Positions 6,491-19,109 of a DNA stretch of 32,000 bases are shown here, in pieces. How positions within the stretch are numbered: position 1 is the first letter of the stretch; every line of letters begins with the position of its first letter. Below the pieces are notes generated by a model. The model saw only the letters and a list, made by a program, of their open reading frames with translations. It had not been told where the DNA came from and searched no databases. The translations under genes were made by a program, and so were the position numbers. Origin of the DNA: Candidatus Iainarchaeum sp. (lineage in GTDB: Archaea > Iainarchaeota > Iainarchaeia > Iainarchaeales > VGJJ01); contig JAUYHT010000002.1 of assembly GCA_030688545.1 (NCBI GenBank), forward strand, positions 90,001-122,000, written 5' to 3'.

Positions 6491-7177
6491 ATGAAAGTAA
6501 AATTGTATAATATTACCCCAAAAGGCCTGTCGCTGAGACAGCACCACATTTTTATTGGAATCAGCCTTGGAACGGCCAAGAAGTTGACAAAGGATCAGAT
6601 TACCAATTGGATTAATTGGGGTAAATTGTATACTAAGGGGCAAATCGTCTTTTTGATTGCTGATGAGATAGCGCGTTTCAATTACCGCGTTTTTAGCGGT
6701 TATGGAGAAACTAAATCGATTAATCGTGCCTTTAATGAAGGTTTAAAATATGAGAAACTAATTCGAGACATAACCATGGAAAAAGGCATTATGAGAGTAG
6801 GTGTGATTCATTGGAGGGATATTTGGAATAATGAAAAAGAAAAGATTAGATTAGTATTAACAGAGGAATATTGCACAAATGAAAAATTTAGGACTAATAT
6901 TCTTTTTTTCGTTCGCAAATATGTGAAAAATAGGGGAGTTGACCCGGATGAATCGCAACTAGATTATTTGTCACAGTATATTTTGTATGAACTGCCTACA
7001 CTAATGGATGGAATTTCCTATAACCGGACGAAATATTCATTACTACTTTATCCAATCTTCGGGCGCAGCAGCGGAATGAGTGAATTTGTTGTTGGTCTCA
7101 AAAAGAGTTTTCCAAATCTCAATAAAAAGTTAACCCCTTACATTCAGATTCCTTTAGTCGAAACCAACATCGAATGA
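6491..7177 (+). CDS. tRNA-dependent cyclodipeptide synthase (CDPS, AlbC family; XYP subtype by motif)
   Basis: 228 aa. HHIFIGISLGT matches AlbC HALIGISAGN (Ser25 = AlbC Ser37). QYILYELP matches AlbC NYVLAEAP (Tyr163/Glu167 = Tyr178/Glu182). LLLYP has Tyr187 exactly 20 residues after the Glu, as AlbC Tyr202. Thr at the N40-equivalent position plus Tyr-Pro indicates the XYP subtype. Size is typical of CDPSs. Own TATA (6458-6469) and T6 terminator (7182-7187). Confidence 0.7.
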   Translation: MKVKLYNITPKGLSLRQHHIFIGISLGTAKKLTKDQITNWINWGKLYTKGQIVFLIADEIARFNYRVFSGYGETKSINRAFNEGLKYEKLIRDITMEKGIMRVGVIHWRDIWNNEKEKIRLVLTEEYCTNEKFRTNILFFVRKYVKNRGVDPDESQLDYLSQYILYELPTLMDGISYNRTKYSLLLYPIFGRSSGMSEFVVGLKKSFPNLNKKLTPYIQIPLVETNIE

Positions 7178-12265: not shown

Positions 12266-13681
12266 ATGCTCGACTTCTGGGGCTGGCTCATCCTCATAGG
12301 AATCGTCCTCGTCGCAAGCACCGCAGTGATTAAGAAATATGTGAAGGGCGCCAAATCCTGGGCCATCATTACCATGTTGCGGTTCGAGAAACCCCGGCGG
12401 ATTTTCGATGCATTCCGGCAGCACCCAAAATGGGTGGATCGTCTCACGGATTTGGGATTGGTCATTGGATTTGGAGCCATTGCGGTGGATTATCTGTGGA
12501 TGCAGAAAAAACCCATGTGGCATCGCCTCCTGGTTTTTTTGGTGGTCACGGCCGCGCTGGGAATGCTCATCCCCCTCCTTTTTCCTTTGGACAATCCCAT
12601 TGTCCCTATCCCCCCGCCCGTGATCCAGGTGGGGTTTGGCATATTTGGTCTGTCGGGATTGATATTAGTCAGCCTGTTCTATTCGGGAGTGGATATCCTC
12701 AACAAGATGCTCCTGGGAAAGAATGCCTGCGCAGGAGTAGCGCCCGTGATACCCGGGGTTGATCTGCCCAATTCCCCCATTTCAGTCCCCCTGCACGCGT
12801 GGTTGAGTTTCGTGATCATCCTTATCGTGCATGAGGCCTCCCATGGATTCGTCATCCGCAAATTAGGGATGAAAATCAAATCCTATGGCCTGCTCCTCCT
12901 TGGATTTTTACCTATTGGGGCGTTCGTGGAACCCGACGAGAACGAATTAAAAAAACTTGAAAAAAACCACCCGCGGGAAGCCCTCCGCATGTACGCGGCG
13001 GGGCCGGCGAGCAACTTCTATTTCTTTGTCATCGGAACCTTATTAGTATTCCTATTCACCTTTGGAATTGCCGGCCCTATATTGGGCCCCACGCTCACCC
13101 AAATACATGGTAACGCGGTTTCGGGAGTCATAGTTCAAGAGGTGCAGGATAGCATTGTTATCTGCGGCACCGAGTTCGAGGCGCCGGCGCATAATGTCCT
13201 CTTGCCCGGGGACAAAATAATAGCCGTGGACGGGCAGCCCATCCAAGTGTTGCGGGATTACGTGCTCGCGGTGCAGGGAAAAACCGCTTACACGCTGACG
13301 ATCGACCGCGATGGGGCCATAATGGATCATTCCTTCAACGCCAATGAATTAGGAAGGATTGGCATCACGGTGCGCGAGGTCGCCAATCCCGATTATACTC
13401 CTCCCTCGTGGTATGAACCCTTCCTCCAGGTCGCGGGATTTGTTGCTTCATTCGTGGGATGGTTGCTGCTCTTGAACTTCCTCGTGGCCACCGCCAACTT
13501 CATCCCCATTTTACCCTTCGACGGGGGAAAAATGGCCGTGCTCTTATTGGCCCCCTACCTGGGTTTCCTCAAGATGGATGACGCGAGCACCAAGAAAGCC
13601 ATCCAAAAAGTATTCCTCTGGATCATGCTTGCCCTCATCATTGTGAACGCCGCGCCCTTGGTGATTGTGAATCCGGTGTAA
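12266..13681 (+). CDS. site-2 protease (M50) family membrane metalloprotease with PDZ-like insert
   Basis: HEASHGF (HExxH in a TM helix) and NFIPILPFDGG (NxxPxxxxDG motif). PDZ-like stretch GDKIIAVDGQPI. The track ORF starts at ATG 12242, which lies inside the TTTATATA box (12235-12242). ATG 12266 is about 27 nt downstream of that box, so I prefer it. Confidence 0.8.
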   Translation: MLDFWGWLILIGIVLVASTAVIKKYVKGAKSWAIITMLRFEKPRRIFDAFRQHPKWVDRLTDLGLVIGFGAIAVDYLWMQKKPMWHRLLVFLVVTAALGMLIPLLFPLDNPIVPIPPPVIQVGFGIFGLSGLILVSLFYSGVDILNKMLLGKNACAGVAPVIPGVDLPNSPISVPLHAWLSFVIILIVHEASHGFVIRKLGMKIKSYGLLLLGFLPIGAFVEPDENELKKLEKNHPREALRMYAAGPASNFYFFVIGTLLVFLFTFGIAGPILGPTLTQIHGNAVSGVIVQEVQDSIVICGTEFEAPAHNVLLPGDKIIAVDGQPIQVLRDYVLAVQGKTAYTLTIDRDGAIMDHSFNANELGRIGITVREVANPDYTPPSWYEPFLQVAGFVASFVGWLLLLNFLVATANFIPILPFDGGKMAVLLLAPYLGFLKMDDASTKKAIQKVFLWIMLALIIVNAAPLVIVNPV

Positions 13682-13794
13682 CACATTCCTATGTGGTGGG
13701 AGGTTGATAACTTGCACACGCCTAAATGGCCATAAAAATAGAAAAAAATGAGAATATAGAGTACTCTATTAAACCAAAAAGGAATTTTCTAACC

Positions 13795-14184
13795 ATGAAA
13801 TTGACAAAAGAGGACAAAAAATTGATTGCTCGGGCGAAAATTCTTGTCCGGCCAAAAAAAGTGAGTGGAGGCATTATCAAGGAAGTTGGTGCCGCACTCC
13901 TTTCTATGAAAGGAAAAATTTTTACGGGAACAAGTTTAGACCTTGGCTGTGGAATTGGATTTTGCGCAGAACATTCCGCCATCGCCAATATGATTTCTCA
14001 TACTGATGAAACCCAAATTAAGACCATCGTGGCTGTGGGAGGGGAGAAAGTGATATACCCTTGTGGCCGTTGCAGAGAAATAATGAGATTGATAGATAAG
14101 AGAAATTATAGGAAAACGAATGTGATAATTTCTGAAAAAAAGAAAGTTAAACTAATTGATCTGTTGCCTGGAGAATGGATGTGA
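13795..14184 (+). CDS. cytidine deaminase-fold zinc enzyme, blasticidin-S-deaminase-like
   Basis: CAEHSAI (CAE zinc/catalytic motif) and PCGRCRE (PCxxC). Overall collinear with fungal BSD: LTxEDxxLIxRA...GxIFTG...CAE...IVAxG...PCGRCR...LLP. I start at Met24 (ATG 13795). A/T box CTATTAAACC (13766-13775) lies about 25 nt upstream. Confidence 0.75.
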   Translation: MKLTKEDKKLIARAKILVRPKKVSGGIIKEVGAALLSMKGKIFTGTSLDLGCGIGFCAEHSAIANMISHTDETQIKTIVAVGGEKVIYPCGRCREIMRLIDKRNYRKTNVIISEKKKVKLIDLLPGEWM

Positions 14185-14186
14185 AT

Positions 14187-14414
14187 TTAATTCGCCAATA
14201 AATAAATGACCATCAACACAAACGCCGTGCCCCAAAAAAGAGTCCAAAATGTTTGGTACTTCTTTCCCGACCAATTGGGCCAATAATTGATTTTCCGAAC
14301 CAAAAATATATTTTCCTTCCCGAAAAAATAAACCAGATGGATCGACCAATCGTATAAAATCATGAGTGTTACGAATACTGGGATCCAATAAACCATGAGA
14401 CTGAAATCAAACAT
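14187..14414 (-). CDS. small membrane protein (two predicted TM helices), third gene of the ImmA-DUF4411 operon
   Basis: MFDFSLMVYWIPVFVTLMILYDW...FWTLFWGTAFVLMVIYLLAN. ATG at 14414 is preceded by AAGGGTGATATC, a GGTGAT Shine-Dalgarno-like element. It lies 26 nt after the DUF4411 stop. The track start (GTG 14453) overlaps the upstream gene. Confidence 0.45.
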   Translation of the reverse strand: MFDFSLMVYWIPVFVTLMILYDWSIHLVYFFGKENIFLVRKINYWPNWSGKKYQTFWTLFWGTAFVLMVIYLLAN

Positions 14415-14440
14415 GATATCACCCTTGGTATTAGAATTTT

Positions 14441-14926
14441 TTAAAACTTCCACTCCTCATTCCTAAACAATCCGACTATATCCACGGCCTCGATCCCGAA
14501 TTTTTGACAAATAAAGGGGATCCGTACGCGGTCGCCACGCAACCGCTCCTCTGTGACAACTATTTGCTTAATTGAAATCAGTCGGGATTGATCTTTAAGT
14601 TCAATAGCCAATGCGACAATCCAAGGATCGGCACAGTAGTCACTCGATTCATCCAGAAGGGAGGGATACTTGTGCAATATTTTTTTCACTATTTCAATCT
14701 GTTTTTCTGTTTGTTTTTTGAACATTGATTTACACTTCTTGGCCCAATCCAATAGTTGATCATCTCCTTGATTAATCTCTTCAAGCACCTCCATCGGAGC
14801 CACTAATCTTTCTTTATGAGCCAATTTTGCCATTTTCTCCCAAATGCTTGGAAATACATCCATCGGGTTCCGCCGATTCAAGGTTATTAAAGAAGAACTA
14901 TCAACTATATAGCAGTCTGATTTCAT
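14441..14926 (-). CDS. DUF4411-family PIN-like protein (putative nuclease/toxin)
   Basis: 161 aa. N-terminal YIVDSSSLITL (PIN-type acidic beta-strand), DQLLDWAKK, CADPWIVALAIE, IVVTEE, and RIPFICQKFGIEAVDIVGLF fit the DUF4411 consensus as I remember it. The ATGA overlap with the upstream ImmA gene indicates translational coupling. Confidence 0.75.
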   Translation of the reverse strand: MKSDCYIVDSSSLITLNRRNPMDVFPSIWEKMAKLAHKERLVAPMEVLEEINQGDDQLLDWAKKCKSMFKKQTEKQIEIVKKILHKYPSLLDESSDYCADPWIVALAIELKDQSRLISIKQIVVTEERLRGDRVRIPFICQKFGIEAVDIVGLFRNEEWKF

Positions 14927-16077
14927 AATTTTGCCTTAGAAAGAACCCTTTCAAAAGATTTCGATTTGATTGACAAATAGTTCAGAGCATCGGAGTAAGT
15001 TATATAATCACGATCGAAATTGTTGGCAACCAGTGATACGAACTTGCCGCCCACCTCGGCTAGGCACTTTTTGTCTGATGGCATGCCAGCCATTTTCCTT
15101 CCTTTTTTATTCTTGATAAGTGACATTTTTATTTTGAATCTCCCAAAAATTTCATCAAATTGCGTTTTACTAATAAATTTTCCTTTCAGCATCGTTACTA
15201 ATAGAAGTGCTTTACTCACTTTGAAATGAGATGACAATTTGTTGAGGTATTTCGTTTCGGTCAATGAATCACGATTTTTTTCAAATAGTCCTTTCGAAAT
15301 AAGATTTGGCAGCAAAAATGAGGCGGCAAATCGATTACACCAGGATTCTATAGAATTGTGATCATTTTGGGTAACATCTGGAAGGTCTATCGCTGATTCC
15401 CCTAACAAGATATGTCCAAATTCATGCATGAGTGAAAATAATCGGGCTTCAATTGTATCTTTTGTACTAACCGTAATTACTATAGGGTTTTCATCTAATA
15501 GGACAAAACCCCGTGCGTCTTCAACAGGCATTGGAAGCTGCAGGATAAGAATGTTCAAACCTTCCAGGTTTTCGCGCAAATAGCCAAAAAACGCATATGG
15601 TGTTTTGAATTTAGTCTGCTTTTCCTCGGATAATGAAAACCTTTCACGATAGTATAGTGCTAGATTTTCTGGACTTAAGGATAAATCGATTCGCTCAATT
15701 TTCGATTTGGTCGACCTATCAATATTGGTCAAGAGAATTCGGCCGATCGTTTGAATTTTTCGTGCTTTTCTGATTGCGAAGATAGTTTTTGTGTCAAATA
15801 CCCCTGCCTTTTCAGGCAACATGCGATAATCTTTAGGCAATGGTTTTTCGATCTTCGGTGACGATAACAAAAAGGATGCCACGGGGCGCTTGTAAGCGAC
15901 CGCAAGTATTTTTATTTGCCTGAAACTGATTTCCTTTTTTCCGCCTTCAAACTCTTCAACTATTTCAATTGGCAGGCCCAGTTTTTCCGCTATCATCTCC
16001 TTTGACCAGCCCGCACTCTCGCGCAACCATTTGAAAACCGATGGTTTTACCGTCGTGGTCAGGGTTCTCATAGGCAT
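14923..16077 (-). CDS. XRE-type HTH fused to ImmA/IrrE (COG2856, DUF955) zinc metallopeptidase
   Basis: 384 aa. N-terminal HTH (FKWLRESAGWSKEMIAEKLGLPIEIVEEFEGGKKEISFRQIKILAVAYK). HEFGHILL (HExxH) followed by ESWCNRFAASFLLP, the typical ImmA/IrrE signature. Confidence 0.85.
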   Translation of the reverse strand: MPMRTLTTTVKPSVFKWLRESAGWSKEMIAEKLGLPIEIVEEFEGGKKEISFRQIKILAVAYKRPVASFLLSSPKIEKPLPKDYRMLPEKAGVFDTKTIFAIRKARKIQTIGRILLTNIDRSTKSKIERIDLSLSPENLALYYRERFSLSEEKQTKFKTPYAFFGYLRENLEGLNILILQLPMPVEDARGFVLLDENPIVITVSTKDTIEARLFSLMHEFGHILLGESAIDLPDVTQNDHNSIESWCNRFAASFLLPNLISKGLFEKNRDSLTETKYLNKLSSHFKVSKALLLVTMLKGKFISKTQFDEIFGRFKIKMSLIKNKKGRKMAGMPSDKKCLAEVGGKFVSLVANNFDRDYITYSDALNYLSIKSKSFERVLSKAKL

Positions 16078-16228
16078 GTTAAAACCTTTATATCGCAGTG
16101 ATTACTTGATTCTAGTCGATAGCAATCCAACTTTAAAAAGGAAAGTAGACGCCAAACCGCCATTAAAAAAAAGGATTACCCAGGGAGCGACCCTGGGAAC
16201 ATATTTTAGGAAAAGTAATCGATATTAT

Positions 16229-18121: not shown

Positions 18122-18232
18122 TTCCCATTCTGCCTTTCTCATACATTCCCGCTCTTCCCGCCAAACAAAATACCCATTTAAAACCCTTATCCGGCGTGGT
18201 TCGTCTGTTTCCGGAAGGAAAACAGGTCAGAT

Positions 18233-18304
18233 GCCCCGTTAGCTCAGTGGTAGAGCGCCCGGCTGTTAACCGGTAGGTCGGTGGTTCAAGTCCACCACGG
18301 GGCG
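18233..18304 (+). tRNA. tRNA-Asn (anticodon GTT)
   Basis: Hand-folded cloverleaf. Acceptor GCCCCGT/ACGGGGC, D arm GCTC-AGTGGTA-GAGC, anticodon arm CCCGG-CTGTTAA-CCGGT (C27-U43 mismatch), variable AGGTC, T arm GGTGG-TTCAAGT-CCACC, discriminator G. No encoded CCA. T-run follows. Confidence 0.95.
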
Positions 18305-18422
18305 TGTTTTATTGAGTGTATGAATCGCATTTTTTCAGTGGTAGAAAAATGATTGTAATTGGACGCATATTAGATAGAATTAAAATGGCCCCTTTTTTTA
18401 ATCGAATAGAAGGGATCCAGTA

Positions 18423-19109
18423 ATGGGACGTCGAAAGCGATACCGATCAAAATCCTTTGATTTTCTTTCTCGCAAATATGATATTATTCTTATTTTAATA
18501 TTCATGGCAATCGCATCAATTTATTTGTTCGCAGCAGGAATGTATTTACCGGCTTTAATTATTGGGGCCATTCCCGTAATGTATTTGCATATAAAAACTA
18601 ATTATTTAAATTTATTATTTGCATTTTTATCTGAAATGATAGATGAATTAAAAATTACTTTTGGGATTGATAAAAACCATGATGAAAAAACTATTGAGAT
18701 AGTAAGGTATTTGAAATCTTTTCGTACCAATAGGATAATTCATAATGAATTCGAAATACAATTGGCACTGGAAGTTTATTTGAAAAACAAATATCAAATT
18801 TTTTCAGAATTTAGGACAAAACGCGGGGAATCAATAGATTTTATTATAAATAAAAAATATGCAATTGAAGTTAAAATAGCTAAATCAAACAACACGTTAA
18901 GAAATTTAATTTCTCAAATAGAAGAGTACATGATGGAATATCCAAGATTGATTGTTTTCATTTATGATTATGGTGCCCCAGTGGATTTGAATTATTATGC
19001 CTCTAGGATAAAAGAAAAAGGGGCCAATGTCATTATTTGCAAGGGTAGATTTACCTCAAACGATTTAGATAGGAGAGAGGATAAATATGGAGTATTATAT
19101 TCTCGATAG
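18423..19109 (+). CDS. membrane-anchored protein with C-terminal PD-(D/E)xK nuclease-like core
   Basis: 228 aa. Basic N-terminus MGRRKRYRSK, then about 2-3 TM helices (ILILIFMAIASIYLFAAGMYLPALIIGAIPVMYL). The C-terminal domain has EFEIQLALEVYL...GESIDFIINKKYAIEVKIAK (D-x10-E-x-K) and a downstream Q (LISQIEEY). T/A box (18393-18402) lies about 26 nt upstream of the ATG. Confidence 0.55.
   Translation: MGRRKRYRSKSFDFLSRKYDIILILIFMAIASIYLFAAGMYLPALIIGAIPVMYLHIKTNYLNLLFAFLSEMIDELKITFGIDKNHDEKTIEIVRYLKSFRTNRIIHNEFEIQLALEVYLKNKYQIFSEFRTKRGESIDFIINKKYAIEVKIAKSNNTLRNLISQIEEYMMEYPRLIVFIYDYGAPVDLNYYASRIKEKGANVIICKGRFTSNDLDRREDKYGVLYSR

Follow-up and report, generated by a model that had tools for sequence, protein, structure and literature searches.

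In a 32,000-nucleotide stretch of contig JAUYHT010000002.1 (hereafter the window, meaning the whole stretch analyzed), which belongs to the metagenome-assembled genome of a Diapherotrites (DPANN) archaeon, three consecutive genes encode a 384-amino-acid (aa) protein with a helix-turn-helix (HTH) domain and an M78/IrrE-type peptidase domain, a 161-aa DUF4411 protein with a PIN-like nuclease fold, and a 75-aa protein with two putative transmembrane (TM) segments. An initial annotation had proposed that the three could form a tripartite toxin-antitoxin (TA) or abortive-infection module. We find that the locus is very probably a two-gene type II TA or abortive-infection module of the VapBC52 (Rosmer-like) kind, horizontally acquired and followed by an unrelated membrane gene, a reading that resolves the supposed undescribed tripartite system into a known two-gene TA/defense module and a neighbor. 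The evidence obtained consists of homology, domain architecture, catalytic and motif residues, the PIN fold, gene coupling, a signature of horizontal transfer and the lack of linkage to the small gene. The part of the proposal that concerned the HTH-peptidase/DUF4411 pair stood, this pair being of the TA/defense type, but the third gene showed no recurrence.

VapBC52 is the Rv2515c/Rv2514c pair of Mycobacterium tuberculosis (PDB 9VZY, and 9VZZ for the toxin) described by Singh et al. (Nucleic Acids Res June 2026; PMC13273310). The two chains of 9VZY are named "HTH cro/C1-type domain-containing protein" (393 aa) and "DUF4411 family protein". VapC52 is a PIN toxin that cuts tRNAs. In the neutralization complex, which has a VapB52:VapC52 stoichiometry of 1:2, the N-terminal HTH domain of VapB52 binds the toxin dimer on its outer face and a helical C-terminal domain covers the toxin active site, with a peptidase domain of IrrE type in the middle (PMC13273310). 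Single-stranded DNA (ssDNA) sets off an HExxH-dependent self-cleavage of VapB52 that frees the N-terminal domain; the proposed cut site is a conserved "FR" motif (F75-R76) where the N-terminal domain meets the middle one, and C229 of a "cysteine switch loop" blocks the zinc at rest (PMC13273310). The system functions with two proteins and confers phage resistance in M. smegmatis, toxicity also being reported (PMC13273310). The earlier statement that the DUF4411 pair had no experimental characterization is therefore out of date, because for the homologous pair VapBC52 both structures and an activation mechanism are available, as are data on toxicity, on tRNA targets and on defense against phage. 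The related statement, that the arrangement was not a described system, likewise gives way: VapBC52 is this pair, which had moreover been predicted in 2009 and 2017.

The domains named in the initial annotation were all recovered by Pfam hidden Markov model (HMM) searches. For the 161-aa protein, the DUF4411 match (1.5e-28) spans profile positions 1-159 of 159. The single sequence aligned to the toxin chain 9vzy_D at E=9.9e-8, and a profile of 15 toxin homologues reached E=3.3e-20 against 9vzy_D/9vzz_A. An AlphaFold2 (AF2) model of the protein, with a predicted local distance difference test (pLDDT) score of 87.8, retrieved only VapC/PIN toxins as top Foldseek matches in the PDB (Rv0301, VapC11, PAE2754 and VapC21; probability 1.00), in agreement with the PIN-like fold expected from the sequence. 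Four acidic residues (D9, E46, D100 and E127) are invariant in the alignment of the 15 homologues, and D9 aligns to VapC52 D6, the catalytic residue mutated in the crystal construct. The protein also matches phrog_11126.

Similarly, the 384-aa protein matched Peptidase_M78 (2.3e-13) and HTH_3 (1.2e-5) in Pfam, 17 RmrA models in PADLOC (best 7.7e-16), the "transcriptional regulator" family phrog_2439 (4.6e-41) and, over residues 10-296, VapB52 itself (PDB 9vzy_A, HMMER, E=4.5e-18). We aligned 26 antitoxin sequences; like the at least 120 homologues among the matches listed, they are 53-69% identical to the window antitoxin over their full length, C-terminus included. The residues H218, E219, H222, E244, D83 and R85 are invariant in this alignment, and Y84 is conserved in at least 90% of it. 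The HEFGH zinc motif aligns to HEFVH of VapB52, and D83-Y84-R85 aligns to the D-F-R that contains F75-R76 there, cleavage at the window motif being a prediction. Between HExxH and the third zinc ligand, the loop GES[VA]IDLPD (residues 226-233) is nearly invariant in this mostly archaeal clade. The AF2 model of the antitoxin (pLDDT 71.8) comprises an HTH domain, a peptidase domain and four C-terminal helices, and its top Foldseek matches were IrrE (3DTI), CapP (7T5T), PprI-ssDNA (8SLN), PrpR and C-protein-like HTHs, the same set as the structural neighbors given for VapB52 (PMC13273310).

The two genes are also coupled, in the window and elsewhere. The stop codon of the 384-aa gene is overlapped by the DUF4411 start in the ATGA at 14923-14926. 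A genome scan in which each species was represented once gave at least 499 relatives of the DUF4411 protein, and we surveyed 82 loci, namely, the 80 best of these at least 499 and two metagenomic contigs carrying 75-76% homologues, copies of the window locus being excluded. The 80 best relatives are 40-60% identical to the window protein and mostly archaeal with few bacteria, from DPANN groups, Thermoplasmatota, Methanosarcinales, ANME, Altiarchaeota and Promethearchaeota. An HTH-M78 gene lies directly 5' of DUF4411, with an overlap of 4 or 1 nucleotides (nt), in about 77 of the 82 loci, and it was directly upstream in nearly all loci with sufficient DNA. The VapBC52 family is abundant and well conserved (~55% identity over the full length) in DPANN and other archaea.

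The gene 3' of DUF4411 varies among loci. At the locus of the 76% homologue, a convergent gene and a type III restriction-modification system adjoin, and at that of the 75% homologue (L005 705-1535), a 129-aa unknown gene overlaps DUF4411 by 13 nt and is followed by a PIN_2 gene, these two probably making up a further TA pair placed after the first. A gene of 1058-1068 aa begins 9-10 nt past the DUF4411 stop in three loci (L051 4487-7663, L055 449-3625 and L083 4497-7703; hosts Thermoplasmata in two and Altarchaeum in one); in L051 and L083, the two that were scanned, its product is a PLD-nuclease plus SNF2 helicase. These loci may represent a recurrent three-gene defense arrangement, unlike the one proposed for the window. 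Together with the restriction-modification genes beside the 76% homologue, they place relatives of the pair in a defense setting, in keeping with the VapBC52-like reading. Other loci carry hydrogenase, DUF2283 or unknown genes in this position. Hydrophobic mini-ORFs (open reading frames) found 3' of DUF4411 at six further loci (L009, L011, L022, L035, L054 and L064) were rejected as counterparts of the small window gene, as they are unrelated to it and to each other, and most look like chance ORFs.

The small gene itself is real. Its 75-aa product has two hydrophobic segments (approximately residues 4-30 and 55-74), in line with the annotated two-TM topology, and it gave no match in Pfam, PADLOC, NCBIfam or PHROGs. 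A word-indexed search of 5.8 billion proteins returned the ORF and a single 68-aa homologue, 72% identical, encoded behind a LAGLIDADG_3 gene on a G+C-rich contig of 1.5 kb that has no DUF4411 gene. When 1.84 billion representative proteins were then searched exhaustively with a HMMER profile, 20 were matched at E<=1e-3; they are 50-86 aa long and share the motifs [MI]xYDxSxHL in TM1 and YxxFWxxYWGxAF in TM2. These 20 proteins with the same motifs identify the ORF as a genuine gene of a small uncharacterized 2-TM family, and the family alignments favor the 75-aa form over the 88-aa form that would start at an alternative GTG at 14453. The family is rare and comes mainly from metagenomic contigs.

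Linkage between the two families was examined in both directions. That a small membrane gene would recur in third place beside DUF4411 had been set beforehand as the test of the tripartite proposal, and no such recurrence was observed. When searching outward from DUF4411 (tblastn and the family HMM, filters off), a 2-TM family member was found near none of the 82 loci (4592 ORFs, 561 kb), the only matches being copies of the window locus itself. In the other direction, we compiled 29 other loci of the 2-TM family, 26 from a metagenome scan with a 6-sequence alignment and three more, and a DUF4411 or M78 ORF lay within 3 kb of the family member in 0 of the 29. The recurrent neighbors there are a convergent ClpB-like gene (7 of the 29 loci) and a LAGLIDADG-type gene (3 loci), and one member is placed between divergent and convergent genes. 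By this comparison of neighborhoods, the small 2-TM gene is a coincidental neighbor of the pair and not a conserved part of the module. At three of the 2-TM loci, the divergent upstream gene has the look of a pilin of candidate phyla radiation (CPR) type or of a VirB2-like membrane protein, and the genes flanking three members appear to resemble those of CPR bacteria.

The whole locus, which is assembled identically in SRR13727534 and SRR26726065, lies in an AT-rich islet. As the initial annotation had observed, base composition drops between the M50 site-2 protease gene and ftsZ, both assigned by Pfam: the G+C fraction (GC) is 0.36-0.44 across 13500-16000 as opposed to ~0.52-0.55 on either side, and GC at third codon positions (GC3) is 0.36-0.50 in the four islet genes as opposed to 0.58-0.72 in most other window ORFs of at least 100 aa. 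Low GC3, together with homologues of 50-60% identity scattered over DPANN, Thermoplasmatota, Methanosarcinales and some bacteria, gives the islet the look of a horizontal acquisition. Convincing flanking direct repeats or a border tRNA were sought as integration marks, and none was found; the only tRNA nearby is a tRNA-Asn, 2 kb beyond ftsZ. The fourth islet gene, which the initial annotation did not list, encodes a cytidine-deaminase-like protein (Pfam dCMP_cyt_deam_1 2.3e-6; NCBIfam cytidine deaminase models at ~1e-15, below their cut-offs) and converges on the small 2-TM gene, with 2 nt separating the two stop codons. To judge by its GC3 of 0.36, the deaminase-like gene may be foreign as well. 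The deaminase gene is a neighbor in the islet that stands outside the module, and it is no fixed partner of the small gene: it was absent beside the 2-TM family members checked and is not among the recurrent neighbors of the 29 loci.

Putative transcription signals set the module apart from ftsZ. Directly 3' of ftsZ, a hairpin with a perfect 7-bp stem (6 G-C pairs) is followed by TAATCCTTTT; it is likely the ftsZ terminator, dividing ftsZ from the module, and this hairpin and T-run leave the module with an upstream region of its own. That region, in which A/T-rich TATA-like stretches occur, presumably holds the putative promoter and operator of the module. The hairpin and T8 run resemble a bacterial-type intrinsic terminator, although the genome is archaeal. 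A sigma-70 promoter scan gave sites no more numerous than in shuffled sequence, with a model that is bacterial and inapplicable to archaea. All feature coordinates are collected in Table 1.

Table 1. Features of the DUF4411 locus and of other regions discussed in the text (window coordinates unless a locus is named; residue numbers refer to the 384-aa protein).
Feature	Position	Strand	Remarks
HTH/M78 peptidase ORF	14923-16077	-	384 aa; antitoxin gene, VapB52-like / RmrA-like
XRE HTH domain	residues ~16-66
D-Y-R motif	residues 83-85
M78/IrrE zinc peptidase domain	residues ~172-293
Helical C-terminal region	residues ~300-384
D83-Y84-R85 codons	15823-15831	-
HEFGH zinc motif codons	15412-15426	-	residues 218-222; H218, E219, H222
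GES[VA]IDLPD loop codons	~15379-15402	-
DUF4411 PIN-like nuclease ORF	14441-14926	-	161 aa; toxin gene, VapC52-like
Small 2-TM ORF	ATG at 14414, stop at 14187	-	75 aa
Cytidine-deaminase-like gene	13726-14184	+	152 aa; convergent with the small 2-TM gene
Non-coding region upstream of the module	16078-16178	-	A/T-rich, TATA-like stretches
G+C-rich hairpin, then T8 run	16179-16197	-	directly 3' of ftsZ
2-TM family members outside the window	L004 1263-1469; L086 634-846; L088-L113
Second AT-rich islet	6491-7177	+	228 aa; GC 0.36
tRNA-Asn	18232-18305	+
Most AT-rich ORF of the window	18423-19109	+	228 aa; GC 0.29

Could the 2-TM protein nevertheless be a third component of the module, acting as a membrane effector or sensor added in this lineage? 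Its gene is on the same strand and within the same AT-rich islet, only 26 nt (14415-14440) beyond DUF4411, and a Shine-Dalgarno-like GGTGAT (14418-14423) sits 3 nt 5' of its ATG, all of which could be read in the sequence as annotated. Neither a T-run nor a hairpin separates it from the DUF4411 stop, and Rosmer-type antitoxins can pair with membrane-depolarizing toxins (PMC10440598). The idea that GGTGAT-type elements mark operon-internal genes in this window was not reproduced: none was found in the 20 nt upstream of 31 long ORFs in a crude scan with mechanical start choice, which is weak evidence. Against a third component stand the absence of co-occurrence in both directions, the different downstream genes of the closest DUF4411 homologues (75-76%), and the 2-TM members elsewhere, which stand alone, often facing a convergent ClpB-like gene or following a LAGLIDADG gene. 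In addition, a TATA-like TTTTAAAAAA at ~14444-14453, ~30-39 nt 5' of the small gene's ATG, would allow it a putative promoter of its own, and VapBC52 operates as a two-protein system (PMC13273310). We thus regard a tripartite module as very unlikely, and give the same low credence to a newly born three-gene variant in which the small protein was captured into the operon by read-through as a lineage-specific accessory, whether membrane effector or sensor.

A different possibility is that the HTH-peptidase is the regulatory switch of a mobile element or prophage, controlling other genes in the manner of ImmR/ImmA, DdrO/IrrE or CapH/CapP, with the PIN protein as cargo. M78/IrrE peptidases are the classical repressor-cleaving switches (PMC2701414), both proteins match phage families (phrog_2439 and phrog_11126), and the islet looks horizontally acquired. 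However, an integrase, genes for replication or structural proteins, and a small standalone XRE repressor ORF like those of the three systems named are all absent from the islet, the HTH being fused to the peptidase, and the islet borders show neither a tRNA nor convincing flanking repeats. Viral sequences moreover seldom carry the pair (4 IMG/VR contigs and 2 phage records, as opposed to at least 499 genome matches), and a TA module fits both the strict coupling of the two genes, one of them for a PIN nuclease, and the 1:2 neutralization complex solved for VapBC52; we consider the switch very unlikely. A viral origin of the module was set aside in view of the same rarity in IMG/VR and phage records. 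Finally, spurious ORFs are common in AT-rich sequence and several unrelated hydrophobic mini-ORFs occur 3' of other DUF4411 genes, as would suit a decaying or inert remnant with the small ORF arising by chance. Neither large gene is truncated, however, and each retains every catalytic and motif residue, while for the small ORF there are a 72% identical homologue, on a contig whose G+C content is quite different, and 20 profile matches of the same length and motifs, which makes a remnant extremely improbable.

If the locus works as a two-gene VapBC52-like module, the 384-aa protein and the DUF4411 PIN nuclease would be produced from one translationally coupled transcript. The antitoxin HTH domain would bind the toxin dimer while its C-terminal helices cover the nuclease site, and the HTH would probably also act as operon repressor. 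The M78 zinc peptidase would be switched on by a signal of stress or infection, which is ssDNA for the mycobacterial pair, and would then cut the antitoxin itself near D-[F/Y]-R, between the HTH and peptidase domains. The freed PIN toxin would cleave host and/or viral tRNAs, and growth or virus replication would stop. Toxicity, the mode of neutralization, the tRNA target, the trigger and the defense role in an archaeon are here ascribed to the window pair by inference from VapBC52.

Several observations weigh against the assignment to a VapBC52-like two-gene module, or against parts of the mechanism that it would imply. The window has I230 at the position aligned to VapB52 C229, and this Ile is invariant in the 26 homologues, so activation may differ from the ssDNA/cysteine-switch model; with the cysteine switch absent, activation is the least secure step of the mechanism. 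Sequence homology to VapB52 was undetected past residue ~296, and the C-terminal 70 residues of the antitoxin AF2 model are of low confidence, so that we can only infer an occlusion of the toxin site by the C-terminus. None of the PADLOC RmrT models was matched by the DUF4411 protein, its sole match being PDC-S70 at 0.0018. Functional knowledge of the family comes from the mycobacterial homologue. As for the small gene, there is no terminator-like element (T-run or hairpin) from the DUF4411 stop to its start, the first T-run (T7) coming 3' of the small gene, and this makes co-transcription with the pair possible in this genome; the small 2-TM gene is possibly co-transcribed through read-through. 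The missing cysteine switch bears on the described mechanism rather than on family descent, and activation in the large Ile clade may take a signal or mechanism different from the ssDNA/cysteine-switch route of VapB52 and CapP. This clade, which has no cysteine-switch residue where the current activation model needs one, offers a natural test of that model. The presence of what may be a self-arresting or self-killing module beside ftsZ in a DPANN archaeon with a reduced genome is also a small data point on archaeal virus defense.

Two other regions of the window drew our attention. The product of a second AT-rich islet, 228 aa long, matches PF16715, the cyclodipeptide synthase family, at 4.7e-10, above the cut-off; a member of this family seems unexpected in a DPANN archaeon. 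Beyond ftsZ, the ORF with the highest A+T content in the window comes after the tRNA-Asn gene; it matches the DpnII-MboI restriction endonuclease family only weakly, at a score under the cut-off, and this tRNA and ORF may be an integration hotspot with a defense gene.

Among known systems, VapBC52 is the closest to the window pair. Both have the antitoxin gene first and the toxin gene second, a DUF4411 PIN toxin with the same acidic residues, and an antitoxin of ~390 aa with an N-terminal XRE HTH, an IrrE/M78 domain with HExxH and Glu, a helical C-terminal region and a D-[F/Y]-R at the HTH/peptidase junction, and similarity is significant for both proteins. The window pair differs in its archaeal (DPANN) host and in an identity of only ~25-30%, in the conservative F-to-Y change that gives "YR" in place of "FR", in the invariant Ile of its clade where VapB52 has the zinc-occluding C229, and in a C-terminal domain whose homology went undetected by sequence. 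In 2009, Makarova et al. (PMC2701414) predicted that COG2856-Xre fusions pair with PIN toxins, and in 2017, Matelska et al. (PMC5499597) predicted a DUF4411.1 gene 3' of a fused HTH-DUF955(COG2856) gene; computational predictions of such TA or defense pairs were also named in the initial annotation. The window arrangement is exactly as predicted; the "three components" of these predictions, which were predictions only, are three domains (HTH, protease and nuclease) and include no third membrane gene.

RosmerTA (RmrT/RmrA; Millman et al. 2022; Ernits et al. 2023; RipAB/spr1630-spr1629 in S. pneumoniae) shares with the window an HTH and Zn-peptidase antitoxin and a two-gene design with interchangeable toxins, and ImmA-type antitoxins have been reported paired with PIN-like toxins (PMC10440598). 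The window antitoxin partly matches the NCBIfam spr1629 antitoxin model, with a score of 52.7 that is far under the cut-off of 335. The toxins differ, since known RmrT proteins act by membrane depolarization or on the sliding clamp and the window toxin matches no PADLOC RmrT model. CapH/CapP (regulation of the cyclic-oligonucleotide-based antiphage signaling system, CBASS), DdrO/IrrE and ImmR/ImmA have the peptidase fold in common with the window antitoxin, which does not carry the CapP-type cysteine switch residue, and they share the logic of signal-activated cutting of an HTH protein. In contrast to these two-protein switches, the window pair combines substrate and protease in one polypeptide, and its output would be the release of a nuclease toxin rather than the derepression of a regulon.

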